DNA of 64,000 nucleotides from a virus (taxonomy: Duplodnaviria > Heunggongvirae > Uroviricota > Caudoviricetes): positions 1-64,000 of IMG/VR virus record IMGVR_UViG_2737471844_000002, one strand, 5' to 3'. Under the pieces are notes generated by a model. That model made no database searches and had not been told where the DNA came from. It saw nothing but the letters and a program-made list of their open reading frames with translations. Positions 1-64,000 of this stretch are shown here, in pieces. The first letter of the stretch is position 1. Each line of letters opens with the position of its first letter. The position numbers and the translations under genes are program-made.

Positions 1-61
1 GGTATCCGTTCTGCTGAAGTGTCATGGCGTTGATTTTACGGTGACTCTTCGACAGTGAAAA

Positions 62-83
62 GAAAAAAGGCCGCAGAGCGGCC
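62..83 (-). terminator. Putative rho-independent terminator downstream of ORF 190..606
   Basis: Hairpin GGCCGCAGAGCGGCC preceded on the plus strand by an A-run (U-run on the minus strand). Confidence 0.4.
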
Positions 84-189
84 ATAAACACAAACAAAAA
101 TCAATAAGTTAGATAATTATCAAAGACTTACAGACACACAAAAACACAGCCAACCACAACAAATAACAGAGATGTGGTCACTTTGTGGA

Positions 190-606
190 TCATTCGCTCC
201 CCTCTTTTTCCTTATTTCGTTGAACGCCAATTGCGACACACGTACTAAGCAAATCTTTACATTTCTCTACGTCTTCAGACTTACGCAATTTGATGCTTTT
301 TACAGACTGCGGGCTACTGTCCGTAGCACGATACATCGTTATTTCAATATCATTTCGGTCTAAGAGTCCCATAATGGCTTTTGCAACCTCCACACCCTTC
401 TTCGCGAAATCAAAGAACAGAGCAAGTTTATATGGATTTTCGACGGAAAAAACTTCAATTTTGCTAAAACCAACATCGTGTAGAGAAAAATATTGCTCAA
501 CCTCATCTCGAAGTTCTGGATCGCATACAATGTCTATTCTCCAGTACTGACCTAAATGCAAATCGCTATTAACTGTTTTTTCCACAACATCCTCCTTACC
601 CAGCAA
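190..606 (-). CDS. Hypothetical protein (138 aa), AT-rich, overlaps integrase stop by 11 nt
   Basis: Six-frame ORF; position between integrase 3-prime end and presumed attL; no recognisable motif. Confidence 0.45.
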   Translation of the reverse strand: MLGKEDVVEKTVNSDLHLGQYWRIDIVCDPELRDEVEQYFSLHDVGFSKIEVFSVENPYKLALFFDFAKKGVEVAKAIMGLLDRNDIEITMYRATDSSPQSVKSIKLRKSEDVEKCKDLLSTCVAIGVQRNKEKEGSE

Positions 607-1570
607 TAGGATTAAATCTCACCGCATCCTGCAAGTAATCCGGCGCAAGATGGGCATAAATCATCGTTGTCTGAATCTTTGCGTGCCCCAGAATTTTCTG
701 GAGCGTCAGAATATTGCCGCCGTTCATCATGAAATGACTGGCGAAGGTGTGGCGCAGCGCATGAACAGCCTGGCCGTCAGGAACATCAGGTGCGACCGTT
801 TTGATGACATCGCGAACCAATGGATAATCCAGCGTCGGAAACACCAGTTTCCCGCCCCGTTTTTTGATCTTTTCAAACAGGCTTTCAGAAATAGGAACGG
901 TACGGTTTTTGCTGTTCTTCGTTTTTGAAAAAGTGATTCGACAATGAAGAACACGGCGCTGCTCCAGTGCCGCTACCTCGCCCCATCGCGCCCCGGTCGA
1001 CAGAAGGATTTCGACAGCCAGCCGTTCATCGGGATTTTCAGCCAGTGCATCCAGCAACTGAACACATTCAGACTTACTCAGATATCCCATTTCGCGCTCG
1101 TTAACCTTCATTCCTTTAAGGCCTTGAACGGGGTTATCGTTAAGAAAATGGCCGGATGAGATGAGTGCGGTAAACATCGCGCTTAACGCCCCAATCTCTC
1201 GATTTATGGTGCTGGGCTGTATCCCCTGCTCTATCCTGGACACACGTAGCTCGGTGAGCATCGTTGTATTAAGTTTATGCACGCACGGGTCATCCATTGC
1301 CTCACTCAAGCGCAGCAATTTAAGGCGCGTGTTATGCCCAGACTTCATTAGCTGGCCGTGGTATTTCCACCACAAGTCAATAAGCACTGACAGCGGACGG
1401 CGATCAATAGAGTTTCCTTTCCACTCATTGTTATGCTGTTGCGCCAGCACCCACCGCTCATATAAAACTGCATCCGATTTCGTTTTAAATTTTTTACGAA
1501 TGCGTTTGCCTTTACGCCCCTCCGGGCGCATGTCAAGAAGATACCCTCCCGGAATTGATTTTATGCTCAT
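596..1570 (-). CDS. int: Tyrosine recombinase / phage integrase
   Basis: C-terminal HALRHTFAS...LGHAKIQTTMIYAHL motif typical of the tyrosine recombinase catalytic domain; start trimmed to internal Met (MSIKSIPGGY) to avoid overlap with the repressor ORF. Confidence 0.9.
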   Translation of the reverse strand: MSIKSIPGGYLLDMRPEGRKGKRIRKKFKTKSDAVLYERWVLAQQHNNEWKGNSIDRRPLSVLIDLWWKYHGQLMKSGHNTRLKLLRLSEAMDDPCVHKLNTTMLTELRVSRIEQGIQPSTINREIGALSAMFTALISSGHFLNDNPVQGLKGMKVNEREMGYLSKSECVQLLDALAENPDERLAVEILLSTGARWGEVAALEQRRVLHCRITFSKTKNSKNRTVPISESLFEKIKKRGGKLVFPTLDYPLVRDVIKTVAPDVPDGQAVHALRHTFASHFMMNGGNILTLQKILGHAKIQTTMIYAHLAPDYLQDAVRFNPIAG

Positions 1571-1619: not shown

Positions 1620-1928
1620 TTAGCCGGGCTGTGTGCCAGTCTTGCGGGGTTTTTGAGAAGGCGATGTGCTTTTTGGCCCATCAGGGGAGAGAGACGGACT
1701 GATCTGCCCAGCAGCCTCATTTGTTTTTCCCGTCATAAGCCAATTCATGTACTTAAAAAAGCGAGGGTGATTAACAATCTTGATAAGCACTTCGCCCCCT
1801 ATGTTTTCAATCCGCCCCGTTTCATAACGACGCAAAGTGCCGATAGGCACATCAATCAGGCCGCAAAATTCTTCGCGCGTTAAATCCTCTGATTCACGAA
1901 TCACTCTAATTTTTTCACCGATAAGCAT
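1620..1928 (-). CDS. XRE-family HTH repressor (P2 C / 186 cI position)
   Basis: N-terminal HTH (IRVIRESEDLTREEFCGLIDVPIGTLRRYETG); divergent from the cox-like gene across an operator palindrome; start placed at internal Met MLIGEK. Confidence 0.7.
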   Translation of the reverse strand: MLIGEKIRVIRESEDLTREEFCGLIDVPIGTLRRYETGRIENIGGEVLIKIVNHPRFFKYMNWLMTGKTNEAAGQISPSLSPDGPKSTSPSQKPRKTGTQPG

Positions 1929-3342: not shown

Positions 3343-3409
3343 ATAAGAAAACGTGAAAACCATCCGTATTAATGGAGGTATTCGCACGCGTAAATAACGG
3401 AGATATAAA

Positions 3410-3826
3410 ATGAAAGCAAAAGAAGAAGGCATTATCGACACATTAAAAAAAATATCAGAAGCGGAAGATGAAATGGCTAAAGATGCCGTGAAGCGTAGCC
3501 AACATATGGCAGCACTTCACGCACTGACCATTGCAAAAATCACCGCTGACGCAGCCAAAATTATTGAGGAACAGGGCAAAGAAATCGACACTCTTAAAAC
3601 ACAGTCAACAGTTGCAGCCATGAATCCGTCCAGCATTGGACGCCGCATTTACATTCTTGGTTCGGCAATAATGACGCAATACACCATTATTGCCGAACTG
3701 CACGGCAAATACCTGATAACGCCTTACCACACAAAAGAGTCAGAGCTTCTGACAAATCTCCGCCTGATAGAACGCTCTCAAGCTGTATTCATTGATGACG
3801 CGCAACGTGCCGTATTTAACGCATAG
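3410..3826 (+). CDS. Hypothetical protein (138 aa), AT-rich
   Basis: Long ORF with an A-rich purine run upstream; composition differs from its neighbours. Confidence 0.5.
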   Translation: MKAKEEGIIDTLKKISEAEDEMAKDAVKRSQHMAALHALTIAKITADAAKIIEEQGKEIDTLKTQSTVAAMNPSSIGRRIYILGSAIMTQYTIIAELHGKYLITPYHTKESELLTNLRLIERSQAVFIDDAQRAVFNA

Positions 3827-3849
3827 GGTTACTGGACAAAGGGGGCGCA

Positions 3850-4316: not shown

Positions 4317-4612
4317 GCACCATCAACCACCAGAAGCTACGCGAACTGGCATTTGCCCTGCAACGAATGGCAACGCCTCAAAAATTACTGGCATTTCGCG
4401 CAATGCTCTCGCCGTCTGCTGTGCTGGCACTGCTGAATGAGCTGGAGCACGCCAGAACCACGGCTCCTGCCATTCGCCTGACGCTCCATCATGAAATCGC
4501 TGATTTCTGCGCGACGTTGGAGGCGCCGGGCGAACCGGAAACGCCGGAAGCAATACAGCAAGAGCTGCTGCAACGCATTGACAAGGTTTTTGATTTTTTT
4601 CTGAACCAGTAA
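4313..4612 (+). CDS. Ea22/Ead-like early protein
   Basis: N-terminal pattern QKLRELA...LLAFRAML.P..VLALLNELE, recalled as typical of lambdoid Ea22-like proteins. Confidence 0.45.
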   Translation: MSTINHQKLRELAFALQRMATPQKLLAFRAMLSPSAVLALLNELEHARTTAPAIRLTLHHEIADFCATLEAPGEPETPEAIQQELLQRIDKVFDFFLNQ

Positions 4613-4733
4613 GAAACCAGAACATGCACACACAAAAAAACCGCTTGCCATGCCGCAATCAGTCAGGTTACATTTCCGCTGCACCTCATAAAACGGGTGC
4701 CGGGATTTCCACCCCGCTGACAACTACAGCGCA

Positions 4734-4756
4734 CAACCGCGCCAGCGGTTTTTTTG
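4734..4756 (+). terminator. Possible rho-independent terminator
   Basis: AACCGC-GCCA-GCGGTT hairpin followed by TTTTTTT. Confidence 0.35.
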
Positions 4757-4934
4757 TGCGTACTGTATCGCCACGTCTTTTTCGCACACGAATTATGGTG
4801 GGGCGTACGGGGCCGACTTCGGTCGGGCCGGGTTCTGTAGTTGCCGGTTGTGGAAACCCTGTACGTCTCACCACCCCGAGTTTTCCACCTCTGGATGGTG
4901 AGTTTTCAAAACTTGCAACTACAGAGGCCACACC

Positions 4935-5165
4935 ATGGCAAACCGCAAACAGCACCGCGCTATCGCGGAGCGTCGTCACATCCAGACTGAAATCAACCGC
5001 AGACTTTTCCGCGCATCACGCGTCGCGCAAATCATGCACATCAATATGCTGCATGAGCGCAGCCACGCACTATCAAACATCTATTCCGCCGCTGTTTTCA
5101 GCTATCTGGCGGATGATCTGCACGAGCTTCAACAGCTCATCCAGCAGCAAAACAAACTCCATTAA
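4935..5165 (+). CDS. Hypothetical protein (76 aa)
   Basis: Six-frame ORF. Confidence 0.4.
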   Translation: MANRKQHRAIAERRHIQTEINRRLFRASRVAQIMHINMLHERSHALSNIYSAAVFSYLADDLHELQQLIQQQNKLH

Positions 5166-6171: not shown

Positions 6172-6819
6172 TCATGCTGATTTTTTACTTACAGATTTTG
6201 TTTCTTGCTCCGGTGTGACATCGGTCTGATCACCCGGCGATTGTGGTCGTATATGAGATTCAACAATTCGCAAAATCTCTCTGTCAGTATCTTCGTTTCC
6301 ATGTAATGCTACTCGGATTGCATCCTTAAGTGATTTCCTGATATTCAGACTTTGGATAGCATTCTCTTGCTCCTCCAGCGTGTTAGCGGCTTGTTTCGCT
6401 TGCCTAGTGGGTTGTTGCAGACGTTTTAGGATTCCTTTGATACCCATATCACATATTGCATTTATCAATAGTTCTTTATCTTCTGTGGACGCTCTTTTCA
6501 ATAACTCGTTAGCTAGCTCGTTTGTAATATCGGGAGAAGGCTGCGCTGTTTGGTTTGATAAAGAGTTTGCTGTGGCGGTGAGTTCCTCACCATAAGCGAG
6601 CCAATTTAAACTCACCTGCTCTTTATCTGAGATAAGGCAGGCTATTTTAAAAGAGGGTTCTGTTCCTTTATGGATGTAGTTGTTTAAGGTTGAAGGAGGG
6701 ATACCCCAGTCGCTCGCGGCAGTTCTGACACTGCGCCCACCTATTAGTTTTACTAAACGCTCTCTAAAACTTTCTTTTCCTCGGTCAACTAAAGAAAAAG
6801 CGTCATCATTTTTTGTCAT
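6172..6819 (-). CDS. Mu c-like repressor (DNA-binding)
   Basis: Leftmost gene, divergent from ner; RBS AGGAAAGGA before ATG at 6819; SVRTAASDWGIPPSTLNNYIHKG...VSLNWLAYGE resembles a phage repressor HTH. Confidence 0.6.
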   Translation of the reverse strand: MTKNDDAFSLVDRGKESFRERLVKLIGGRSVRTAASDWGIPPSTLNNYIHKGTEPSFKIACLISDKEQVSLNWLAYGEELTATANSLSNQTAQPSPDITNELANELLKRASTEDKELLINAICDMGIKGILKRLQQPTRQAKQAANTLEEQENAIQSLNIRKSLKDAIRVALHGNEDTDREILRIVESHIRPQSPGDQTDVTPEQETKSVSKKSA

Positions 6820-6952
6820 TTTTCCTTTCCTATTTAACCAATTGATTTTCAATCACAAAACCATATAAAGACCAAAAGCAAAAAGAAAATACAAAGAAAA
6901 GGCTATTTTTGCTTTACATGGGTTACATATGGATCAATACTTATATCCGAAG

Positions 6953-7001: not shown

Positions 7002-7238
7002 ATGATGGTTAGAAATGAAGTAATGAACCTGGACTGGCACCGCGAGTACATTGTCGCAGCTGTGCACACCAAAGGTTTTACATTGCGTGAACTTTCTGAA
7101 CGCGCTGGTCTAAAAAAAGACTCTTTAAAAAATGCACTGTATCGCTCATGCCCTAAATATGAACGCATCATAGCCGATGCTATTGGTGTGGAACCTGCGG
7201 AGATCTGGCCAAGCCGGTATGCCAGTAAGGCGGCATAA
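7002..7238 (+). CDS. ner: Ner-like DNA-binding protein
   Basis: DWHREYIVAAV...LRELSERAGL...ADAIGVEPAEIWPSRY closely matches the Mu Ner / Nlp family as I recall it. Confidence 0.85.
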   Translation: MMVRNEVMNLDWHREYIVAAVHTKGFTLRELSERAGLKKDSLKNALYRSCPKYERIIADAIGVEPAEIWPSRYASKAA

Positions 7239-9280
7239 TGTTTTATTCAGCCAATGAACTGGCCGGTCTTACTGGTTTGCCCGGTACAGTTCAGGGGGTG
7301 CGCTGGACGCTCAATCGGATCACAGAGACGCACCCGGAATGGAAGCGCAAGCGTGAAGGCACCAAAGCATTCGAGTATCACATCGACTGCCTGCCCGCTG
7401 AAGCGCAGAAGGTTTTACGTAAGCGCCTGACTCATCAGGTTCTGGAAGATGCGCAACTGCCCGCCGTGGTTGAGCAGAAGGCAGTTAAGAACGTCACCAT
7501 TCGCGATGAACTGGAAGTGATGGTCAAATGCCCGGAGCTGGCATTACGCGAAGTTCAGGCACTGACCGACAAGCAAAAGGCCATCGCTGATGCGCGGATA
7601 TTGCTGGCTACCGAAGTGCATAAACTGCGTGAATACGCAGGAATGTCCAGGACGGCAGCGATAAAACACATTGTTGATGGTATCCGCCAGGAGGCTTTGC
7701 CCGAGCGCGTTATTGTGGCAGGTAATACCGCCAATGCCCGACAGGGTAAGCGAACTGGCGTCAGTACAGGGAGTTTACAGGAATGGTATTCCGCCTGGCT
7801 GATGGCGCGCGGTGATGCCAATCAGTTACTGGCGTTACTGTCCCCCGGTCATCATAAGGGGACACCGTGGGAGCAGGTCTGGTGGTTGAGCGATTTCTTT
7901 ATGTTCTATCGCTCATGGAAGCGCCCGACTGTTGAATATGCGTATCGTGAGTTTTCAGTCTGGTGGCATGAAAAACACGCGAATGATGCGGGAATGCTGG
8001 CGGCACTGCCTTCAGTTCACGCAGTAAGACGGGTGTTAAGCAACGTCCCGGTGATTGTTAAGGAGCGTTTCCGCTCCACCGGTTCAGCCTGGCGTTCGCT
8101 CAATCCCTTTGTGCGGCGCGACTGGAGCACATTACCGGTTAATGCGGTATGGGTCGGGGATGGTCACTGTATGAAAATGACCGCGTTTAACCCCCTGACC
8201 GGCAATATTTTCCGGCCAGAGGTGACGCTGGTTATGGATGCGGGGCAGCGCTTTGTTGTGGGCTGGTCACTGTCCCTGTCGGAAAACGTGATAGCCGTTG
8301 CTGATGCGCTGCGTCATGGCATGTCACAGCACGGGATACCGCTGATTTATTACTCCGATAACGGGGGCGGCGAAAAAAACCGGGTGCTTGATGCCGATAT
8401 TACCGGGATTTTGCCCCGGCTGGGTGTGGAGCATCACACGGGGATACCAGGTAACCCACAGGGGCGCGGGGTGATTGAAAGGCTTAACAAGGAAATTCCC
8501 CGGGATGTGGCCCTGAGTTTCCAGACGTACTGCGCAAGGGATGCAGACAAGGAAACCGTAATGATGCAGCAACGGATTATGCAGTCAGCCATTAAGGCCA
8601 CCCACAAAGGGAAAGAACTGACAAAACGGCAGGTTAAGGCGAGGGATGAAATCCCCACCTTTGAGCAACTGATGGCAGCCATAGAGCTGGAGGTCAGACG
8701 CTATAACAACCGGCCACACAGCAGCCTACCCCGCAAAGAGGATGGCGAATATTACAGCCCGGCAGCGTATCGCCGGAAACTGATAAAAGAGCAGAATGTT
8801 GAAATTGATTTCCTGTCGCCGGAAGAACTGCATGAAATGTTCAGGCCGGAAGTGACGCGCAAAACATTTCGCGGGGAAATTCAGTTATTCAACAATATTT
8901 ATTACTCATATGATCTGGCCGCAGAGCACGGGAATGAAGTCAGGGTCAGTTACGATATTCATGATGCAAACAGCGTCATTGTCCGGCGGGCTGATGGCTC
9001 TTATATCTGCGATGCCATCTGGAACGGTAACAAGGTTGATGCCTTCGCTAAACCAGTTATCGAACAAAAACTGGAGAAACGCGTCAGGGGCCGCATTGCA
9101 CGGGCCACGCAGAAAATCGAAGAGGCTAAACGCGAGCTTACCCCGGCTATTACGCAGAAGCCTGACTTTAATCTGGGATATAGACTGGAGCGCCCGGAGA
9201 AAAAGGAAAAAGAAGAACTTTATTTATTCGCATCTGAACGCGAGCGCAATTTAAAGAAAAACGGCACAAACAACCGTTAA
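7238..9280 (+). CDS. A: Mu-type DDE transposase (MuA-like)
   Basis: 680 aa, directly after ner and before the AAA+ B protein; Mu transposase domain organisation. Confidence 0.9.
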   Translation: MFYSANELAGLTGLPGTVQGVRWTLNRITETHPEWKRKREGTKAFEYHIDCLPAEAQKVLRKRLTHQVLEDAQLPAVVEQKAVKNVTIRDELEVMVKCPELALREVQALTDKQKAIADARILLATEVHKLREYAGMSRTAAIKHIVDGIRQEALPERVIVAGNTANARQGKRTGVSTGSLQEWYSAWLMARGDANQLLALLSPGHHKGTPWEQVWWLSDFFMFYRSWKRPTVEYAYREFSVWWHEKHANDAGMLAALPSVHAVRRVLSNVPVIVKERFRSTGSAWRSLNPFVRRDWSTLPVNAVWVGDGHCMKMTAFNPLTGNIFRPEVTLVMDAGQRFVVGWSLSLSENVIAVADALRHGMSQHGIPLIYYSDNGGGEKNRVLDADITGILPRLGVEHHTGIPGNPQGRGVIERLNKEIPRDVALSFQTYCARDADKETVMMQQRIMQSAIKATHKGKELTKRQVKARDEIPTFEQLMAAIELEVRRYNNRPHSSLPRKEDGEYYSPAAYRRKLIKEQNVEIDFLSPEELHEMFRPEVTRKTFRGEIQLFNNIYYSYDLAAEHGNEVRVSYDIHDANSVIVRRADGSYICDAIWNGNKVDAFAKPVIEQKLEKRVRGRIARATQKIEEAKRELTPAITQKPDFNLGYRLERPEKKEKEELYLFASERERNLKKNGTNNR

Positions 9281-9298: not shown

Positions 9299-10192
9299 AT
9301 GAGTTTAATTACGCAATTAAATGACGTAATGGCCCGTCGCGGCTTTACGCAGACCCACGTTGCCCGTGCTATTGGTCGTAGCAGCGCCGTTATCAACCAG
9401 TATTTGCAGGGCAAATATCAGGGCGATATGGCTGATATTGAAGAACGCATTTCTGCCTTTGTGACCCGTGAGCGGGAAAAGGAAAACAGCCGCCGTATTA
9501 AAGCGAAATTTGTTGCCACCGGTATGGCTGCCAAAGGACTGGAAGTGCTGGCCTATGCTCACCTGGAATGTGAAATCTGCGTACTGTATGGCGCGGCAGG
9601 TCTTGGCAAAACAATGATTCTGCGTGAATACGCCGCCAGAAACCGGGATGCGGTCCTGATTGAAGCTGACCCGGGCTATACAGCCAGAACACTGCTTGAG
9701 GAGCTGTGCCGCCAGCTGGGGGTAAAAGTTCGCGGCAATATCCACGAACTGATTGATGCATGTGTGCGAGAACTGCGTGATTCCGGTCGCCTGCTGATGG
9801 TGGACGAGGCTGAACTGCTCCCCTATCGCGCACTGGAGGTTCTGCGCCGTCTGCATGACAAAGCGGGTATCGGGATTGTCCTGGCGGGTATGCCACGCCT
9901 TCTGATTAACCTCAAGGGACGTCGCGGTGAGTTCGCCCAGTTATACAGCCGTGTGGCGCTGGCGCTTAACCTGGGTGATACGCTGGCGCAGGAAGATTTT
10001 AACCAGATAGCCACCGGGCTGATGCCGGAAGCAGCAGAGCCGGAAATCAGCGAGGCGCTTTATACACGTTCGCTGGGTAATGCCCGCCGCCTGTTCAAAC
10101 TGGCGCGTGGTGTGTACCGGATTTGTGATATCAGCGATGCGCCGGTCAGTGTGCAGGCCATTGATAAATTCGCAGAAATGTTAATTCACTGA
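9299..10192 (+). CDS. B: Transposition ATPase (MuB-like, AAA+)
   Basis: Walker A GAAGLGKT, Walker B LLMVDEAE, N-terminal HTH. Confidence 0.9.
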   Translation: MSLITQLNDVMARRGFTQTHVARAIGRSSAVINQYLQGKYQGDMADIEERISAFVTREREKENSRRIKAKFVATGMAAKGLEVLAYAHLECEICVLYGAAGLGKTMILREYAARNRDAVLIEADPGYTARTLLEELCRQLGVKVRGNIHELIDACVRELRDSGRLLMVDEAELLPYRALEVLRRLHDKAGIGIVLAGMPRLLINLKGRRGEFAQLYSRVALALNLGDTLAQEDFNQIATGLMPEAAEPEISEALYTRSLGNARRLFKLARGVYRICDISDAPVSVQAIDKFAEMLIH

Positions 10193-21611: not shown

Positions 21612-23207
21612 ATGGCACAGCTTGTTGATATTTACGGACGCCCGCTGAAACGTGAGGCACTCAAAACCACGCAGACGGTCAGAGTGGCGGAACGGCTGCG
21701 CATTTATCCAGACCACCCGTCGCGTGGTCTGAACATCAGAAAACTGCCGCGCATTCTGGAAGCCGCCGAGCGTGGTTATCTTCCTGCGCAGGCGATGCTG
21801 TTTGCGGATATGGAAGAGCGTGACGGGCACCTGTTCGCCGAGATGGAAAAGCGCAAAAAAGCGTTGCTGACGCTGGACTGGTCGGTGGAGCCGCCCCGCA
21901 ATACCTCGAAGGCAGAAAAGGAGCTGGCCGCCGCCGTGGATGAATGGCTGCACGGCATCCCGGACATGGAGGACATCATCCTCAACGGGATGACCAGTGT
22001 CGGTTACGGCTTCAGCTGTCAGGAAATCAGCTGGGCGTTCGTGGATAAAACGTGGTTACCGGATGCGGTGACGCTGCGCCCGCATAACTGGTTCATTACC
22101 CTGCCGGAACACAATGACGAACTCCGGCTGGATGACGGCGGTCGCGGGGAAGACGGTAAGGACGGTTCCGCGCTGTGGCCGTTCGGCTGGCTGGTTCACC
22201 GTTACAACGCCCGGTCGGGATTTCTGGGTTCATCCGGTCTGTTCCGCGTACTGGTCTGGCCGTATCTGTTCAAAAACTTTGCGCTGCGTGATATGGCGGA
22301 ATTCCTGGAGATTTACGGCCTTCCGGCGCGTATTGCGTACTATGCACAGGGCACCAGTGACGAAGACCGGGACAACATTCTCGAAGCCCTGGTCAATCTG
22401 GGCCATGAAGCGGTGGCAGCCCTGCCGCAGGGTAACGAGATTGAGTTCAAGGAGGCCGCGTCCGGCGGACCGGAGGCGTTCATGTCGATGGTGGAATGGG
22501 CAGAGCGCACCACCTCAAAAGCAATTCTGGGCAGTACGCTGACCAGCCAGGCTGACGGTAAAACCTCCACCAACGCGCTGGGTAATGTGCATAACGAGGT
22601 CCGGCACGACATTCTGGCCGCCGATGCGCGCCAGCTGTCCGGCATGTTCAGCAGCCTGATACAGATGATGGCCAGCCTGAACGGCTGGCAGGATATCCCG
22701 CCACGCCGTCTGCCGCGTCTGGTGTTTGATGTGCAGCAGGAAGCCGACATTAAGGGCGTGGCGGAAGCCGTCAGTGTGCTGGTCAACAGTGTGGGGATGA
22801 AGGATATCCCGGCGTCGTGGGTGCGCAAAAAAACCGGTATCCCCACCCCGAAAGACGGCGAAGAGGTGCTGGTGCCGGTGGCACAGCGTCTCCCTGTGCA
22901 GGCGGGCCTCAGCCAGCTGCGTGAGCGGATGAATGTTGCCGCACTCAGTCAGCAGGACAACGGGGAGGACGACCTGGCACAGAACGCCATCGACCGGGCA
23001 GAGCTTCCGGCAGAGGCCATCGCGCAGGGGATGAACGAACTGGTGGCCCCACTGGTGCAGGCCATACAGGAAGGCCGGGATGCAGACGAGGCCATGAACA
23101 TACTGGCGGAAGCCTGGCCGGAACTGCCGGATGACACGCTGCGGCAGTTGCTGACGCAGGCATTCTTTGTGGCGGATATCTGGGGGCGACTGAATGCCGA
23201 CAGCTGA
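21612..23207 (+). CDS. Portal protein (Mu gp29-like)
   Basis: 531 aa, directly after the large terminase. Confidence 0.75.
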   Translation: MAQLVDIYGRPLKREALKTTQTVRVAERLRIYPDHPSRGLNIRKLPRILEAAERGYLPAQAMLFADMEERDGHLFAEMEKRKKALLTLDWSVEPPRNTSKAEKELAAAVDEWLHGIPDMEDIILNGMTSVGYGFSCQEISWAFVDKTWLPDAVTLRPHNWFITLPEHNDELRLDDGGRGEDGKDGSALWPFGWLVHRYNARSGFLGSSGLFRVLVWPYLFKNFALRDMAEFLEIYGLPARIAYYAQGTSDEDRDNILEALVNLGHEAVAALPQGNEIEFKEAASGGPEAFMSMVEWAERTTSKAILGSTLTSQADGKTSTNALGNVHNEVRHDILAADARQLSGMFSSLIQMMASLNGWQDIPPRRLPRLVFDVQQEADIKGVAEAVSVLVNSVGMKDIPASWVRKKTGIPTPKDGEEVLVPVAQRLPVQAGLSQLRERMNVAALSQQDNGEDDLAQNAIDRAELPAEAIAQGMNELVAPLVQAIQEGRDADEAMNILAEAWPELPDDTLRQLLTQAFFVADIWGRLNADS

Positions 23208-39065: not shown

Positions 39066-39994
39066 TGCAGAATTTAATTCCTCCGGTGAATACGCCGGAT
39101 CAATTGTTTCACGATGGTGACCCCACTCAGGGCATTGAGGGCACTATTGTTTATGCTGAACACATGAATAATCAGCAGGGAGCCATTCGTGACCTGCAAC
39201 AGGAAATTATTAATGTGCTCCGTGCGGCTGATATATCACCGGACCCGAAGAAACAAAATCAACTGCTTGATGCTATATCGCAATATGTCGGGAAAAAAGT
39301 TCCTGACGCATCATTAACGAAGAAGGGCATCGTTCAGCTCAGTAGCGCAACAGACAGTGATTCAGAAACGGAAGCAGCCACACCAAAGGCAGTAAAATCA
39401 CTGGCGGAAAAAATAACAGAATTGCAGGGAGTGGCTTTACCGGTAGGTACCCCAATACCGTGGCCGTCTGATTCAGTGCCACCCGGCTATGCCTTAATGC
39501 AGGGGCAGAGCTTTGATAAAGGCTCTTACCCTAAACTTGCAGCTGCCTACCCATCCGGGATTATCCCGGATATGCGGGGCTGGACAATTAAGGGTAAGCC
39601 TGCCAGTGGTCGTGCTGTATTGTCTCAGGAGCAGGACGGCATTAAATCACACGCCCACAGTGCCAGTGCATCCAGTACGGATTTGGGGACGAAAACCACA
39701 TCGTCGTTTGACTACGGAACTAAATCAACAAATAACACAGGTGGTCATAATCACGGTGTTGGTGAAAATGTTTCTGTCAGTGCCGGCAGTGGCAAAACAG
39801 TAAATATGAGTACCGGCACCGTAAATCTTTACACCAAATCTGCTGGCGCTCATGCGCACACTGTCGGCATTGGTGCTCATGTGCACACTGTTGCTATTGG
39901 TTCACACGGACACACCGTCACTGTTAACGCTACTGGTAACGCAGAAAACACCGTCAAAAACATCGCATTTAACTATATTGTGAGGCTTGCATAA
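39065..39994 (+). CDS. Tail fibre protein
   Basis: [21 protein letters not shown] collar motif; Gly/Thr/His-rich C-terminus; segment shared with the P2-like H gene. Confidence 0.8.
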
Positions 39995-45367: not shown

Positions 45368-46327
45368 ATGAAAATTTGTATCGACGACGGCTCCACCAAC
45401 ATCAAGCTGGCATGGACTGAAAACGGCGAACGCCGCAACGCCATCAGCCCGAACAGCTTCAAGTCGGAATGGTCTGCGCCGTTCGGTGGCTCGCAGCCTG
45501 CGAACTACATGCTTGATGGCGTGCGCTATGGTTTTGATCCGGTCAGCGATCGCTTTGTCCAGACGACCGACACGCAATACCAGTACAGCGATGTGAATGT
45601 CATTGCCATTCATCACGCGCTGGTCAAATCAGGCATCACGCCACAGGAAGTGGATGTTGTTGTCACCCTGCCACTGAGCGAATATTTCGACACTAACGCC
45701 CAGCCGGACATGGCCAACATCAACCGCAAAAAAGCGAACGTTATGCGCCCGGTGGAGTACCAGAACGGTGAGGCATTCACTATCCGTAACGTGCGGGTTA
45801 TGCCTGAATCCATTCCGGCTGGCTTTAAGGCACTGGCTGACATGAGTCCGTTTGAATCCCTGCTGATTGTGGATTTGGGCGGAACCACGCTGGATGTGGC
45901 AAAGGTTCAGGGGCAACTGGCAGGTATCAGCCAGGTGTTTTGCGATCCACACGTAGGCGTTTCTCTGATGGCCGATGCCGTACTGTCGGTGATGGCCACT
46001 AACGGTATGCGCACCAGTCACCACATAGCCAATACCATTATCGAACATCGCCATGATGAAGCCTGGCTGCGCCAGCACATCCACAATGACGCGCATTACG
46101 CCAGCCTGATGGCGGTTATTCGTGAAAAGGAAGAAACACTGAAACAACGTGTTATCCGCGCGCTGGCGGTTTTTTCGGGTTACGGGCGGGTGATGGTTGT
46201 CGGTGGAGGGGCGGAGATTGTGGCACCCGCTATCCGCGAAGCCTGCGGAGTTAATGCGACTTTCATCGCGGACGGGGTGCCACAGTTTGCTCTGGTTAAT
46301 GGGCTGTACGCAATGGACAAGGAGTAA
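45368..46327 (+). CDS. parM: ParM/StbA-like actin-type partition ATPase
   Basis: IDDGSTNIKL...ISPNSFK.EW...QYSDVNVIAIHHAL..SG....EVD...TLPL matches ParM/StbA as I recall it. Confidence 0.75.
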   Translation: MKICIDDGSTNIKLAWTENGERRNAISPNSFKSEWSAPFGGSQPANYMLDGVRYGFDPVSDRFVQTTDTQYQYSDVNVIAIHHALVKSGITPQEVDVVVTLPLSEYFDTNAQPDMANINRKKANVMRPVEYQNGEAFTIRNVRVMPESIPAGFKALADMSPFESLLIVDLGGTTLDVAKVQGQLAGISQVFCDPHVGVSLMADAVLSVMATNGMRTSHHIANTIIEHRHDEAWLRQHIHNDAHYASLMAVIREKEETLKQRVIRALAVFSGYGRVMVVGGGAEIVAPAIREACGVNATFIADGVPQFALVNGLYAMDKE

Positions 46328-47021: not shown

Positions 47022-48104
47022 ATGGTAAACGTGAGGGAGGATGAACTTTTCAAACTCATCGAGCAAGGCATCAAAGGCAACGCAAATGCATTTACACTCC
47101 TATGCAGAAAGATGATTAACAACATCCGTAAAAATGATGAGGCTTTAGCTTCTAAGCTGGCTTCGTTAGTTGCTGAGGGAACAGTATTACGTGGGGCATC
47201 TAGTAAGGCTCCTATGCCTGTGGATGGAGACTCCAGACGAAACCTTTTGCAGGAAACATCTGTCAACGCAATTGTTGAAGAACCTGTATGGAATACGGAT
47301 ATCTCAAAGAAGCTGGAGTCAATTGTTAACGAAAGAGAGAATGCGGTTTCTTTGTTCAAAGCTGGTCTTGAACCTGTGAAGACGGTTTTACTTTCTGGCC
47401 CGCCAGGCGTAGGCAAAACAATGTCCGCACATTGGCTTGCTGCAAAGTTAAATTTACCTCTTTTAACATTGGATCTCTCATCTGTAATGAGTTCTCTTTT
47501 GGGAAAAACAGGTAATAATATTAAATCCGTTATGGATTATGCCAAAGAGAAACCATGTGTCCTTTTGCTTGATGAATTTGATGCTGTTGCAAAAAGACGT
47601 GATGATGACAGGGACGTTGGAGAATTAAAACGTTTAGTTACTGTACTCCTACAGACCATAGATGAGTGGCCAGCGACCTCGCTTCTTGTTGCTGCGACTA
47701 ATCACCCTGATATCTTAGATCCGGCTGTTTGGCGTCGATTTGAGCACATCCTTAAATTTAATATGCCATCAGTAGAACTGATAGATAGATATTTAGTCAA
47801 TCATAATATTGAACCTGAACTATCTAAAAAACTTGCACCATTATTAGATGGCATGTCCTTTGCCATCATTAACCGTATTTTGAATTTCTCCAAAAAGAAT
47901 GAGGTACTTAGAAATATTCCATTTGAAAGCTCATTAATAGAAGCCGTAATTACGGAGAGGGTTTCATTGGATGAGTTTAGCGATAATGATCTCAATATAA
48001 TTAAATATCATTTTGACGGTTTTTCAAATAGGAAGATAGCTGAATTAGTTGGTGTTTCACATCCAACAATCGCGAATAAATTACAAAAGTGGGGGATTAA
48101 ATGA
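47022..48104 (+). CDS. AAA+ ATPase with C-terminal HTH (IetA-like)
   Basis: Walker A GPPGVGKT, Walker B LLLDEFD, sensor/Arg-finger ATNHPDILDPAVWRRF, C-terminal NRKIAELVGVSHPTIANKL; AT-rich. Confidence 0.85.
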   Translation: MVNVREDELFKLIEQGIKGNANAFTLLCRKMINNIRKNDEALASKLASLVAEGTVLRGASSKAPMPVDGDSRRNLLQETSVNAIVEEPVWNTDISKKLESIVNERENAVSLFKAGLEPVKTVLLSGPPGVGKTMSAHWLAAKLNLPLLTLDLSSVMSSLLGKTGNNIKSVMDYAKEKPCVLLLDEFDAVAKRRDDDRDVGELKRLVTVLLQTIDEWPATSLLVAATNHPDILDPAVWRRFEHILKFNMPSVELIDRYLVNHNIEPELSKKLAPLLDGMSFAIINRILNFSKKNEVLRNIPFESSLIEAVITERVSLDEFSDNDLNIIKYHFDGFSNRKIAELVGVSHPTIANKLQKWGIK

Positions 48105-50305
48105 TGGAAAGGAACTTACTTTTAGGTAACGGTCATGTTCTGACAAAAAAGGAACCTTTGCCTAAAGGAAGGGATGGTAAGCGCTATCCCTATACTCTTG
48201 AAGAAGTAAGGGAGCATTTAAACCCAGAGATTGATACTTTACTCTCACGCTTTCGCAGTTTGGATGATGCGGCTAAGCCAAGGGGGGAGAGTGTATTCAA
48301 TTTAACTTTACACCCAGCGTTTTTGGGTAAAAGCTACTTTCCGGAAGGATTGCTTAGAGCGACAGGTTTACGGGATGTCGGTAGCCGTCAGGTAATCATT
48401 CGCCCACGGAAAGCGGCACGTCAGTGCGATCAGAATAAGGACTTAGTAACGGCGCAACTGTTTGTTAGCGGTGATGATGATGCCGTTATAAGATTTAAGG
48501 AAATTTTAAATTCCCCTACAGCTCCGAAGGGCGTACAAAAGGATTTGATCGAAATTGAAAGTGTTAGCTTTTTTGAAGGAAAAGAGAGAGCACGCAATTT
48601 TGAGCATGCGAAAAGTGATTTGATAAAATTTGAAGTGGTTCTTCATGCTGGGGTTGAAGACGATGATATCGTTAAAGCCTATATTAGCTATGCGGCACAA
48701 TATGATGTCTCTGTTGATTACAAAAGTAGAATCCAAGTTGGTGGGCTGACTTTCATCGTTGCACACGCGCGACCTGAAGATATGAAAAAAACACTCGATT
48801 TTTCATTAATCCGCGTTGTGCGGCCGATGCCGTCTCTCAGGTGTACTCAGCCGAACATTGTCAGAAAGTTATCTAATATAGTTACACCGGAGCTCCCTAA
48901 TTCTAAAGCTGTTCTTGAATCCGAACGTATTGCCATTTTTGATGGTGGCTTGGGGACAGCTGACTTGAGTAATTGGGTTACGGAATACGTGTATCCAGAC
49001 ACCAAAGAAACAAGCGGATTATTATTGCAGCACGGTAATGAAGTGACATCCACTTTCTTATTCGGACGTGTCGAGGAAAATGCACCTTCTTTTAAAAGAC
49101 CGTTTATGAATGTAGATCATTATAGAGTTCTTTCACCGACATCAGGTGACAATGGCAATTGGGATTTATTTGATGTCCTTAAGAAAATACAGTCCGTTCT
49201 TGATAGTGGTGACTATAAGTTCGCTAATCTAAGTATTGGTCCTCATCTTCCAATTGGTGATGATGAGGTTCATGTATGGACTGCTGTTTTAGACCAAATC
49301 TGTGCTAAGCATGGGATATTACTTACTGTTGCTGTTGGGAATGATGGCAATGAGGACGGTGATGCAGCGAGAATACAACCTCCTTCCGATATGGTAAACG
49401 CGCTAGCGATTGGTGCTGCTGATCGTAGCGGTGAAAAATGGGGGCGGGCACCATATAGCTGTATTGGGCCAGGCAGAAGCCCCGGATTCGTTAAACCTGA
49501 TGGTGTTATTTTTGGTGGAAGCGACGACGAGCCTTTTTACACTTACAACCCTCTGCTTGGTTCTATAGTTGGAGTTCAAGGAACCAGTTATGCCTCTCCA
49601 TTAGCATTGAGAACGGCCGCTGGAGTTGCGGCTCTATCAGGAACTCCATTGAACACCATTGCATTGAAAGCGTTGCTTGTTCATCATGCTGAAACATCAA
49701 GAAAATATTCGCGTGAACATATCGGTTGGGGACGGTTTAGTGAGGATCCTAACGTTTTAATCGATTGTCCAAATGATACTGCTACAGTAATTTACTATGG
49801 TTCATTAGCAAAAAATAAATATTTAAGGGCACCGATCCCATTCCCTGATGTTCCCTTTGACGAAGCATTTGAGCTTACCGCTACTTTATGCATTCAAACC
49901 CCAGTAGATCCTGAACATTCAGTAAACTATACAAGGGCCGGTATGCAGGTAACTTTCCGCCCAAGATTCGGCCTTGACGATACCGATACAGATGATTTCT
50001 TTGGTCAAAAAAGCCAGTATAAGACTGAAAGGGAGTGTAGGAGTGAAGGTCATAAATGGGAAACTTGTTTGCACAGAAGCAAAAAGTTCAGTGCTGATAC
50101 ATTATTAAGCGATCCAGTTTTTGATATACGGTATCATGCCCGAGATTCTTCGCGCCATGTTAAGGGAGTTTCAGCCCCTGATATGCAATATGCGATGGTA
50201 ATAAGCGTAAGGGTAAAAGACTTTGATTTATATAATGTTATTCGCCAGCGATATACAATTCTGAATCCTATTCAACTGCGCACACAAATTTCTCTCGACA
50301 CGTAA
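48101..50305 (+). CDS. S8 subtilisin-like serine peptidase (IetS-like)
   Basis: Asp IAIFDGG, His QHGNEVTS, Asn VAVGNDGNE, Ser GTSYASP; start overlaps the ATPase stop (ATGA); AT-rich. Confidence 0.85.
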   Translation: MMERNLLLGNGHVLTKKEPLPKGRDGKRYPYTLEEVREHLNPEIDTLLSRFRSLDDAAKPRGESVFNLTLHPAFLGKSYFPEGLLRATGLRDVGSRQVIIRPRKAARQCDQNKDLVTAQLFVSGDDDAVIRFKEILNSPTAPKGVQKDLIEIESVSFFEGKERARNFEHAKSDLIKFEVVLHAGVEDDDIVKAYISYAAQYDVSVDYKSRIQVGGLTFIVAHARPEDMKKTLDFSLIRVVRPMPSLRCTQPNIVRKLSNIVTPELPNSKAVLESERIAIFDGGLGTADLSNWVTEYVYPDTKETSGLLLQHGNEVTSTFLFGRVEENAPSFKRPFMNVDHYRVLSPTSGDNGNWDLFDVLKKIQSVLDSGDYKFANLSIGPHLPIGDDEVHVWTAVLDQICAKHGILLTVAVGNDGNEDGDAARIQPPSDMVNALAIGAADRSGEKWGRAPYSCIGPGRSPGFVKPDGVIFGGSDDEPFYTYNPLLGSIVGVQGTSYASPLALRTAAGVAALSGTPLNTIALKALLVHHAETSRKYSREHIGWGRFSEDPNVLIDCPNDTATVIYYGSLAKNKYLRAPIPFPDVPFDEAFELTATLCIQTPVDPEHSVNYTRAGMQVTFRPRFGLDDTDTDDFFGQKSQYKTERECRSEGHKWETCLHRSKKFSADTLLSDPVFDIRYHARDSSRHVKGVSAPDMQYAMVISVRVKDFDLYNVIRQRYTILNPIQLRTQISLDT

Positions 50306-62019: not shown

Positions 62020-64000
62020 ATGAGTACCACAACACGTAAATTTAAAACCGTTATCACCGATACGGGTGCCAAAAAATTAGCTCAGGCAGCCGCGCCAGAT
62101 GGTAAGCCTGTCCGCCTGACTCATATGGCCGTGGGCGACGGTGGCGGTACATTGCCCACACCAGACAGTAAGCAGACCCGTCTGGTGCATGAGGTGTGGC
62201 GACATACTGTTAATCGCGTCATCCTGGACGCAACACATCAGAACCGCATTATTGCAGAGCTGGTTATTCCTCCAGAAACGGGCGGATTCTGGATCCGGGA
62301 AATTGGTGTGTTTGATGAGCACGGCGATTTAATCGCGGTGGGCAATACTGCCGAAAGTTACAAGCCAGCCGTTGCCGAAGGGTCCGGTCGTGCACAAACA
62401 TTTCGCACCATTCTGACCGTATCCAGCACTGCCACTGTGGCGCTTACCGTGGATAACACCATGGTGATGGCCACAGTGGATTACGTGGATAACAAACTGA
62501 AAGAGCATGAACAGTCACGACGTCACCCGGATGCCTCGCTGACCGCAAAAGGCTTTGTTCAACTCAGTAGCGCCACTAACAGCGATTCTGAAACGCTGGC
62601 TGCAACGCCGAAAGCGGTTAAGGTCGCGTATGATCTTGCTAACGGAAAATATACAGCGCAGGATGCCACAACAGCGCGAAAAGGCCTTGTCCAGCTTAGT
62701 AGTGCAACCAACAGTACATCTGAAACGCTGGCGGCAACATCAAATGCAGTAAAAGCTGCCTATGACAATGCTGAAAAACGTCTGCAGAAAGCTAAGAATG
62801 GTGAGGATATCTCTGACAAAGACACCTTTACGAAAAATATCGGTGCCTGCCGTGCATATAGTGCAGAGCTGAATATTGGTGGAGATAGTGAAGCATGGAC
62901 AACTGCGCAGTTGATTTTTTGGCTAGAGAGTCAGGGGGCATTTAACCATCCTTACTGGATGTGCAAAGGCTCATGGGCTTATGCAAGTAATAAGGTCATT
63001 ACAGATACAGGTTGCGGAAATATTTGTCTTGCAGGTGCTGTTGTGGAAGTTATTGGCACCCGCGGCGCAATGACCATACGCATTACCACACCGAGTACAT
63101 CCAGCGGTGAAGGCATCCCTAATGCTCAATTTACTTATATTAATCATGGTGATGCTTATGCTCCTGGCTGGCGAAGGGACTATAACTCCAGGAATAAGCC
63201 AACAGCATCAGAGATCGGGGCGTTACCGTCAGATGGGACAGCAGTATCGTCAGTTAATCTGGCTTCAAAAGGTCGGCTGACCGCCCTGACAGATAATATG
63301 CAGGGGGCCACAGGTCTGGAGTTATACGAGGCGTATAACAACGGATATCCAACAGCGTATGGAAATATCATTCACCTGAAAGGGATGACAGCCGTTGGCG
63401 AAGGCGAATTACTCATCGGCTGGAGTGGTATAAGCGGTGCTCATGCTCCGGCATTTATTCGTTCACGACGGGATACGACCGACGCAAACTGGTCGCCGTG
63501 GGCGCAGCTTTACACCTCGGCTCATCCTCCTGAAGAGTTTTATCCAGTCGGTGCACCGATTCCGTGGCCATCAGATACCGTTCCGTCTGGTTATGCCCTG
63601 ATGCAGGGGCAGACTTTTGACAAATCTGCATACCCGAAACTTGCAGTCGCTTATCCGTCAGGCGTGATCCCTGATATGCGTGGCTGGACTATCAAGGGCA
63701 AACCTGCCAGTGGTCGTGCCGTATTGTCTCAGGAACAGGACGGCATTAAATCGCACACCCACAGCGCCAGCGCATCCAGTACTGATTTGGGGACGAAAAC
63801 CACATCGTCGTTTGATTACGGTACTAAAACGACCAGTTCATTTGATTACGGCACAAAAACCACAAATAGCGCAGGAGCTCATTCACACAATATACCTGTT
63901 GGTCACACTGGCGCGGGGAATGGTGTATCAGCCGGTTATAACGCTGCGTTAGGTACTGGTACCACGTCGAGCGCAGGAGGGCATGCTCACAATGTATATA
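62020..64000 (+). CDS. H: Tail fibre protein (P2 H-like), 3-prime end beyond the window
   Basis: Open frame from ATG at 62020 to the window end; two [15 protein letters not shown] collar repeats; C-terminal region shares sequence with the Mu-like fibre gene. Confidence 0.8.

Follow-up and report, generated by a model that had tools for sequence, protein, structure and literature searches.

Among the described counterparts of the gene reported here are old, tin and Z/fun of phage P2, which are located at gpA-Q and G-FI, have their own promoters and encode proteins that are unrelated to, and mostly larger than, the one studied here. They are non-essential, prophage-expressed genes that occupy variable slots of the same phage family and have anti-phage activity (bioRxiv 10.1101/2024.10.15.618418; PMC9122126), and it is in these respects that our gene may be likened to them. 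In contrast, no promoter was detected for our gene, which appears to ride the C-int transcript. A third P2 hotspot has been described between a tail protein and CI (bioRxiv 10.1101/2024.10.15.618418), and the int-att interval of P2-like phages was reported as a minor defence hotspot (PMC13586616). The int-att slot is thus already on record from 2024-2026, and our finding is an uncharacterised cargo gene in such a slot. As in those reports, unrelated cassettes are swapped between conserved flanks. However, the tally in those papers is of recognised defence systems, with 3% of the P2 systems found at this site, whereas our ORF is not recognised by PADLOC, and the slot edges are placed here at the nucleotide level, at the int stop codon and Shine-Dalgarno sequence on one side and at the Int repeats of the P' arm on the other. 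Another point of comparison is provided by conversion genes next to attP in other temperate phages, such as ctx of the P2-like Pseudomonas phage phiCTX, an accessory gene directly beside the attachment site. This comparison is positional only: ctx encodes a secreted toxin, whereas our protein has neither a signal peptide nor a transmembrane segment.

A P2-like prophage between ihfA and btuC

The window, by which we mean the whole 64,000-nt stretch of DNA that was analysed, starts directly upstream of the E. coli btuC start codon. The genes at this end are the following.

190 to 585, minus strand: cargo gene, encoding a soluble, acidic protein of 131 aa (15 kDa, pI 5.15; PHROG 14142)
596 to 1570, minus strand: P2-family tyrosine integrase, 324 aa (Pfam Int_N and Phage_integrase; phrog_1)
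1620 to 1928, minus strand: P2 C-type immunity repressor (HTH_3), first gene of the presumed C-int-ORF operon
2025 to 2303, divergent from int and the repressor: gene for a Cox-like protein

The integrase is 48% identical to the Int proteins of P2 and Wphi, and the order of int, HTH repressor and divergent Cox-like gene is that of a P2-type early switch. Positions 42737-64000 are collinear, at 95-98% identity, with the prophage of E. coli E2348/69, whose annotation includes a P2-family portal, a terminase, a GPO scaffold and a P2-family capsid. We identify the element as a P2-like (Peduoviridae) prophage at the ihfA terminator, between ihfA and btuC.

The attachment site and the prophage boundary

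The original prediction placed the ORF between the integrase and a presumed attL, with a host gene outside the prophage as the contrary case. Comparison with an unoccupied host site defined attL and put the ORF on its phage side. The parts of the site are listed below.

59 to 83, no strand: att core, attL copy, 25 bp, AAAGAAAAAAGGCCGCAGAGCGGCC, common to attB, attL and attR
83 to 59, minus strand: intrinsic terminator, with the hairpin GGCCGCTCTGCGGCC at 83-69 and a U-run at 68-59
84 to 189, no strand: phage-side P' arm of attP, 106 nt, GC 0.32
172 to 190, no strand: two direct arm-type Int-binding repeats, ATGTGGTCA and TTTGTGGAT, abutting the ORF stop codon

Positions 1-83 are matched by 5,426 of 5,426 complete E. 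coli genomes, in all of which host identity stops at position 83; only 159 extend beyond it. At the unoccupied site of strain RP437, the 3' end of ihfA follows position 83. E2348/69 harbours the same prophage without the extra insertion, has AAAGAAAAAAGGCCGCAGAGCGGCC at both ends, with the second copy (attR) beside ihfA, and was our source for attR. In the 64,000-nt window itself, a second core copy and ihfA are both absent; attR lies outside because the P2-like prophage, into which a Mu-like prophage is inserted, extends past position 64000.

The P' arm is conserved in 299 E. coli genomes, whichever cassette follows it. A putative IHF-consensus-like site lies at 99-111 (AATCAATAAGTTA, read against WATCAANNNNTTR), and the repeats at 172-190 agree with the annotated Int sites of the P and P' arms of P2, GATGTGGTCAATGTGTGGAC and ACTGTGGACACTGTGTGGAC. 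In the orthologous loci of Salmonella, conservation of the arm is confined to these repeats, and the remainder diverges. The attR arm of E2348/69 contains AAATGTGGACGCATCGTGGAAC. A P2-type attP anatomy is present, with a core and direct TGTGGNC Int repeats, the IHF-like sites being read from sequence only. The second copy of the 59-83 core at attR, the loss of host identity past position 83 and the Int repeats at 172-190 together place the ORF inside the att-bounded prophage, with int on one side and the P' arm on the other. That the ORF might be a host gene beyond the prophage boundary is ruled out by the duplicated att core and by the empty site of K-12-type genomes, which lacks the gene. 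For 159 complete E. coli genomes, the identity of the gene at the prophage edge is settled.

The hairpin and U-run terminator that had been predicted downstream of the ORF proved real, though host-derived: it is the att core itself, which is the terminator of ihfA. Its stem (83-69) has 6 G-C pairs and a loop of 3, and its tail reads TTTTTTCTTT on the minus strand. The terminator lies 106 nt past the ORF stop codon, is unique in the window and is the sole minus-strand terminator-like site within positions 1-2100. At the empty site, the core terminates ihfA and forms the 3' end of STnc540, a ProQ-dependent sRNA (PMC6315103). The Rfam score for STnc540 is 67 bits at the empty site (locus L002, 1501-1659) versus 22 bits for the attL remnant (window 1-124, minus strand), and duplication of the core should restore the ihfA/STnc540 3' end at attR. 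Another lineage with the same gene family integrates at the terminator of raiA, the parent of RaiZ, which is another ProQ-dependent 3'-UTR sRNA (PMC6315103). When a structured RNA was considered in place of the ORF, Rfam returned the host STnc540 remnant only, and the 3' UTR folded no better than shuffled sequence (z = -1.46).

Gene model and selection

The ORF list of the window gives the maximal ORF as 190..606 on the minus strand, with 138 aa and a TTG start, as predicted. The integrase ORF ends at 596, so the 11-nt overlap originally proposed is true of this maximal form. It does not hold for the gene that is most likely translated, which starts at GTG-585 and encodes 131 aa. We doubt the TTG start because the RefSeq annotation of E2348/69 covers 190-585 (131 aa, WP_000416304.1), the codon homologous to GTG-585 is ATG in the Salmonella orthologues, the PHROG profile alignment begins at residue 8 of the 138-aa form, and a ribosome-binding sequence precedes GTG-585 at the proper place.

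591 to 598, minus strand: Shine-Dalgarno sequence TAAGGAGG of the cargo gene, perfect, with a spacer of 5 nt to GTG-585

The int stop codon TAA (598-596) is embedded in this sequence and, with the start at GTG-585, int and the ORF are 10 nt apart and do not overlap. The 10-nt gap is kept in all orthologous loci seen. The AT-richness ascribed to the ORF is borne out by its GC content of 0.396, compared with 0.493 for int and 0.52 for the remaining P2-like DNA, and by its GC3 of 0.36 versus 0.54 for int, which make its base composition atypical.

Pairwise dN/dS among five orthologues (54-87% amino-acid identity, dS 0.24-1.6) was 0.15-0.27, and ORF length, start position and Shine-Dalgarno sequence are conserved among orthologues. 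These values indicate that the ORF is under purifying selection and is a genuine protein-coding gene. We also considered whether it might be no functional gene at all, arising either by chance in the AT-rich DNA that flanks attP or from the host. It has no annotated function anywhere, its surroundings are AT-rich and it is absent from all deposited phage genomes. Nevertheless, low dN/dS over dS of up to 1.6, the conserved start and Shine-Dalgarno sequence, the position inside the att duplication and the empty K-12-type site without the gene refute such an origin, the probability of which we regard as negligible. Since selection acts on the minus-strand frame, the overlapping plus-strand ORFs are unsupported.

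Cassette exchange in the int-att slot

That the integrase of P2-type prophages normally abuts the attachment site, as the original prediction assumed, agrees with the reference phages. In the P2 record, 79 bp separate the int stop codon from the attP core and int overlaps the P' arm with its 3' end, and in Wphi no gene intervenes between int and ogr. The attL arm was found in 299 E. coli genomes, 159 of which carry the ORF, with one chromosomal copy per carrier genome and no match on plasmids. Five or more different cassettes, every one in the int orientation, occupy the slot in the remaining genomes with the same arm; among sister prophages (same attL arm, closely related integrases), about 47% carry such unrelated cassettes instead. 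Sixty of the 299 arm-bearing genomes, sampled at even intervals, gave the following census.

This ORF: 32 of 60 sampled genomes
A pair of genes for 145-aa and 120-aa proteins: 17 of 60
A DUF1640 coiled-coil protein with a 132-166-aa partner: about 6 of 60
A pair of genes for 99-aa and 127-aa proteins: 4 of 60
The 145-aa gene alone: 1 of 60

Most alternative cassettes begin -14 to +10 nt from the int stop codon, and all end at the arm repeats. The slot is thereby bounded by the int stop, which lies inside the cassette ribosome-binding site, and by the arm-type Int repeats of the attP P' arm. No homology was detectable between the ORF and the alternative cassette proteins (loci L003 and L005-L008), or between the ORF and a 129-aa int-adjacent protein of Klebsiella. 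The occurrence of unrelated cassettes between the same flanks points to exchange in a defined slot and supports the cargo reading. The idea of cargo at the prophage edge was therefore sustained, as the gene is absent from P2 and Wphi and near-identical flanks hold unrelated one- or two-gene cassettes. We are highly confident that this is a real gene and prophage cargo, most likely a non-essential accessory gene of the P2-like prophage. The interval from the int stop and Shine-Dalgarno sequence to the Int arm repeats also provides a simple rule for harvesting slot cassettes as candidates for exclusion, defence or conversion.

The gene does not fit the pattern of a classical moron, which is inserted together with a promoter and a terminator of its own: a crude consensus scan, which leaves room for a weak promoter, found no sigma-70-like site upstream on the minus strand, and the ORF has no terminator of its own, the att core being shared with the host. 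Nor was a toxin-antitoxin or two-gene abortive-infection partner found: the cassette has a single gene, and no other conserved ORF is present at the slot.

Genes between int and att occur in other Peduoviridae too, namely a 129-aa and 103-aa pair in a Klebsiella element, cpdA in phiT5282H and a 127-aa gene in SEN5. In the alternative cassettes (L003, L005-L008), the att-proximal gene usually encodes a coiled-coil protein (DUF1640/CCDC90-like) of about 100-145 aa, and CxxC motifs resembling zinc ribbons are found in several int-proximal partners and in the product of the 129-aa gene that follows int in Klebsiella CP052639.1. The alternative cassettes may represent a single type of two-component system. 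E2348/69 carries a Hok/Gef type I toxin gene between ogr and attR (locus L004, 29694-29834), across attP from the ORF. This placement recurs in a Yersinia locus (L065), and both attP flanks carry add-on genes.

Sequence and predicted structure of the protein

No transmembrane or hydrophobic segment and no signal peptide was found in the cargo protein. It matches PHROG 14142 at 8.6e-70 over profile positions 1-128 of 128 and is thus a full-length member of this family, which is annotated as of unknown function and is silent on mechanism. Homology and structure searches, named in the original prediction as the way to identify the protein, failed to assign it a function. There was no match in Pfam or NCBIfam, 0 families in PADLOC-DB 2.0 at E up to 10, only matches of E 0.27 or worse in the PDB profile search, and nothing significant in Foldseek against PDB and BFVD.

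Two AlphaFold2 models had pLDDT values of 74.9 and 78.2, the latter with a pTM of 0.72. The predicted topology is beta1-alpha1-beta2-beta3-alpha2-beta4 followed by beta5-alpha3-beta6. The most conserved stretch is A68-x-x-I-M-G-L-L-x-R-N-D-I-E-I; invariant residues belong mostly to the hydrophobic core. The protein has no catalytic signature, and a DNA-binding fold was not recognised. One database source labels a cluster member (P0033) as a PDDEXK family nuclease. We rejected this label, which has neither a motif nor Pfam support: P0033 and its relatives have no Pfam match at E up to 10 save an unrelated one at 0.016, the conserved D79-x-E81 is not followed by K, and no nuclease is among the fold matches.

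The predicted fold resembles the ferredoxin-like domains of ACT, PII-like and CutA proteins, but without sequence similarity (3-17% identity) and with no Foldseek match below E=0.01. It differs from them in an extra C-terminal beta-alpha-beta unit and in the lack of a conserved ligand motif, so that this is a resemblance only. The protein might accordingly be a lysogenic-conversion factor that tunes host physiology as an ACT/PII/CutA-like ligand- or protein-binding regulator and helps the lysogen by means other than phage resistance. Probable expression in lysogens, as judged from the operon, would suit such a role, as would the many pathogenic lineages that carry the gene, including EPEC E2348/69, O104:H4 outbreak strains, O26:H11 and O111. 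However, the fold matches are weak and unspecific, ferredoxin-like folds abound among proteins, the protein shows no conserved ligand-binding motif, its invariant residues lie chiefly in the core, and the presence in pathogens may be a sampling effect. We consider a regulator of this kind unlikely.

Age and distribution of the family

Other E. coli and Salmonella have orthologues, 54-78% identical, at exactly this position, in the arrangement C-int-ORF-190 nt-btuC. When the two species are compared, dS is 1.2-1.6 for both the ORF and int, whereas dN is 0.30 for the ORF and 0.10 for int, an approximately threefold faster non-synonymous change. The equal dS values point to long co-travel with the int/att module rather than to a recent pick-up.

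A search of 5.8 billion clusters yielded 11 relatives, and a profile search of 1.84 billion representatives yielded about a dozen true ones. A broader profile reached at least 71 clusters (counted at 90% identity), all from Enterobacterales, all annotated as hypothetical and none with a Pfam domain. The family occurs in thousands of assemblies. Its distant subfamilies, at 29-39% identity, are common in Salmonella and Citrobacter, and one distant variant is indexed in more than 2,000 collection blocks. Four family queries found 0 members among 50,697 deposited phage genomes, and thus no direct instance of packaging into virions. No isolated phage has an integrase more than 56% identical to this one, so the absence from phage genomes reflects an unsampled lineage. 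A search of a literature library found no paper mentioning WP_000416304.

Wherever its context was inspected, the distant relative was the last gene of a P2-like prophage on the ogr/D side. These prophages are integrated at four other sites, downstream of raiA, yccJ, mlaA and fabF, where the distant gene (ORF') has the same orientation as the upstream host gene and converges with ogr. The stretch from the host gene to ORF' comprises, in this order, the host terminator, an IHF-like site, arm repeats (GTCCACA..GACCACA) and one more hairpin, which together make up a P2-type P arm. The annotated P2 record has the canonical order D-ogr-attP-int. On circular maps, the distant prophages would then read int-attP-ORF'-ogr and the present one int-ORF-attP-ogr; gene order and orientation would be equal in both, with attP on the other side. 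The family lies next to attP in five or more integration-site lineages. The distant subfamilies have a hairpin with U-runs between the Int arm repeats and the ORF' start, about 15 nt upstream of it in Salmonella (L054 9960-10000, L063 5950-6000, L065 5835-5880, L067 1320-1345). Late transcripts through ogr would cross ORF' in antisense at these loci.

This persistence beside attP raises the possibility that the protein is a helper of the phage att/int module, acting on Int synthesis or activity or on the choice between integration and excision, and hence a life-cycle gene rather than cargo of benefit to the host. The gene is always next to attP, either as int-ORF-attP-ogr in the window or as host gene, attP arm, ORF' and ogr in the raiA, yccJ, mlaA and fabF lineages, its dS equals that of int, and its Shine-Dalgarno sequence overlaps the int stop. 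In addition, the prophage integrates at the terminator of ihfA, and IHF is a cofactor of P2 recombination (an IHF site is annotated in the P2 record). Against this stand the roughly 47% of sister prophages that substitute unrelated cassettes, the recombination of P2 and Wphi without such a gene, the Cox-like protein already encoded at 2025-2303 and the failure to recognise a DNA-binding fold; moreover, int synteny in the distant lineages is deduced from the P2 gene order. We judge a helper role quite unlikely.

Expression and possible function

A consensus scan of the minus strand within int found no sigma-70-like site. As no promoter of its own was detected, transcription of the ORF most likely starts at the lysogenic promoter Pc and covers C and int as well, as in P2, whose record annotates the Pc-C-int organisation. 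The overlap between its Shine-Dalgarno sequence and the int stop codon suggests probable translational coupling to int. The att-core hairpin appears to be positioned at attL to terminate the int-ORF transcript, which would end there in the free and the integrated state alike. Transcription from Pc would result in synthesis of the protein in lysogens, and co-expression with int in lysogens is reasonably probable. A point against expression is that H-NS commonly silences AT-rich DNA in E. coli.

The product is a small, soluble, acidic alpha/beta protein that we propose to act by binding a target rather than as an enzyme. Its likeliest role would be to protect the lysogen through superinfection exclusion or anti-phage defence, as other P2 hotspot cargo does. 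A function of the exclusion or defence type, deduced from position only, is a tentative proposal. It draws on the slot being a reported minor defence hotspot, on a distant relative that neighbours the PADLOC candidate HEC-04 (3e-204) and on the IetAS system in the same prophage. Taken as a whole, lysogen-expressed cargo with a role in exclusion or defence is our best explanation, to which we give somewhat less than an even chance.

A related proposal is that the protein is a counter-defence inhibitor, a small acidic protein that acts against the immunity of the host or of competing elements. At 15 kDa and pI 5.15, it is soluble and an orphan in both sequence and fold, like many anti-defence proteins, and its non-synonymous rate is about three times that of int. 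Yet the gene comes last in the lysogenic C-int operon and does not belong to an early lytic one, its dN/dS of about 0.2 gives no indication of diversifying selection, and anti-defence genes were reported in only 28 P2-like elements (PMC13586616). We therefore hold counter-defence to be very unlikely.

Returning to exclusion or defence, persistent adjacency to attP is the sole feature that this reading fails to explain. Co-divergence with int and the steady position beside attP fit a lasting companion of the att/int module better than shuffled defence cargo. One further proposal is a hitherto unrecognised single-gene function tied to lysogeny, which P2-like phages keep beside attP on either side; we regard it as doubtful. 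If it were true, integration in most lineages would part the gene from int and set it behind a host gene (raiA, yccJ, mlaA or fabF), whereas in the lineage of the window it would stay coupled to int. The protein could then serve in exclusion or defence as a new type, or be a regulator whose expression varies with the integration state of the phage genome. A role outside the four proposed ones is likewise a lesser possibility. For a protein that is an orphan in sequence and predicted fold, a phenotype would add a new small effector; the present data do not indicate an unusual mechanism.

Other features of the nested prophages

The IetAS system consists of an AAA ATPase (IetA) and an S8 peptidase (IetS) encoded at 47022-50305 on the plus strand (PADLOC 3.6e-89 and 6.6e-41). 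The pair is located in the classical P2 gpA-Q hotspot and is shared with E2348/69; a ParM-like gene is found at 45368-46327. The early region between int and gpA constitutes a further variable slot. Within it, positions 3388-3838 and 4322-5122 are missing from the E2348/69 prophage, which is otherwise 98% identical, and the 138-aa ORF at 3410-3826 had no match in Pfam or PADLOC.

The insertion that sets the window apart from E2348/69 is a Mu-like transposable prophage of approximately 36.9 kb (5867-42736) in gpA, the replication-endonuclease gene of the P2-like prophage. It encodes a repressor (6172-6852, minus strand), a MuA-type transposase (7238-9280), a MuB-like AAA ATPase (9299-10192) and a Mu portal (21612-23207). 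A 4-5-bp duplication (ACACG) flanks the element, whose ends have the form TG... and ...CA/AC. Given this insertion in gpA, the P2-like prophage of the strain is probably replication-defective, and its attR is displaced beyond the window. The tail-fibre genes of the Mu-like and P2-like prophages share 82% identity over 290 nt (39440-39729 and 63544-63833), and shorter tail-fibre repeats are found at 62547-62772 and 39322-39415. These shared segments are possible substrates for the exchange of host-range modules between the nested prophages.
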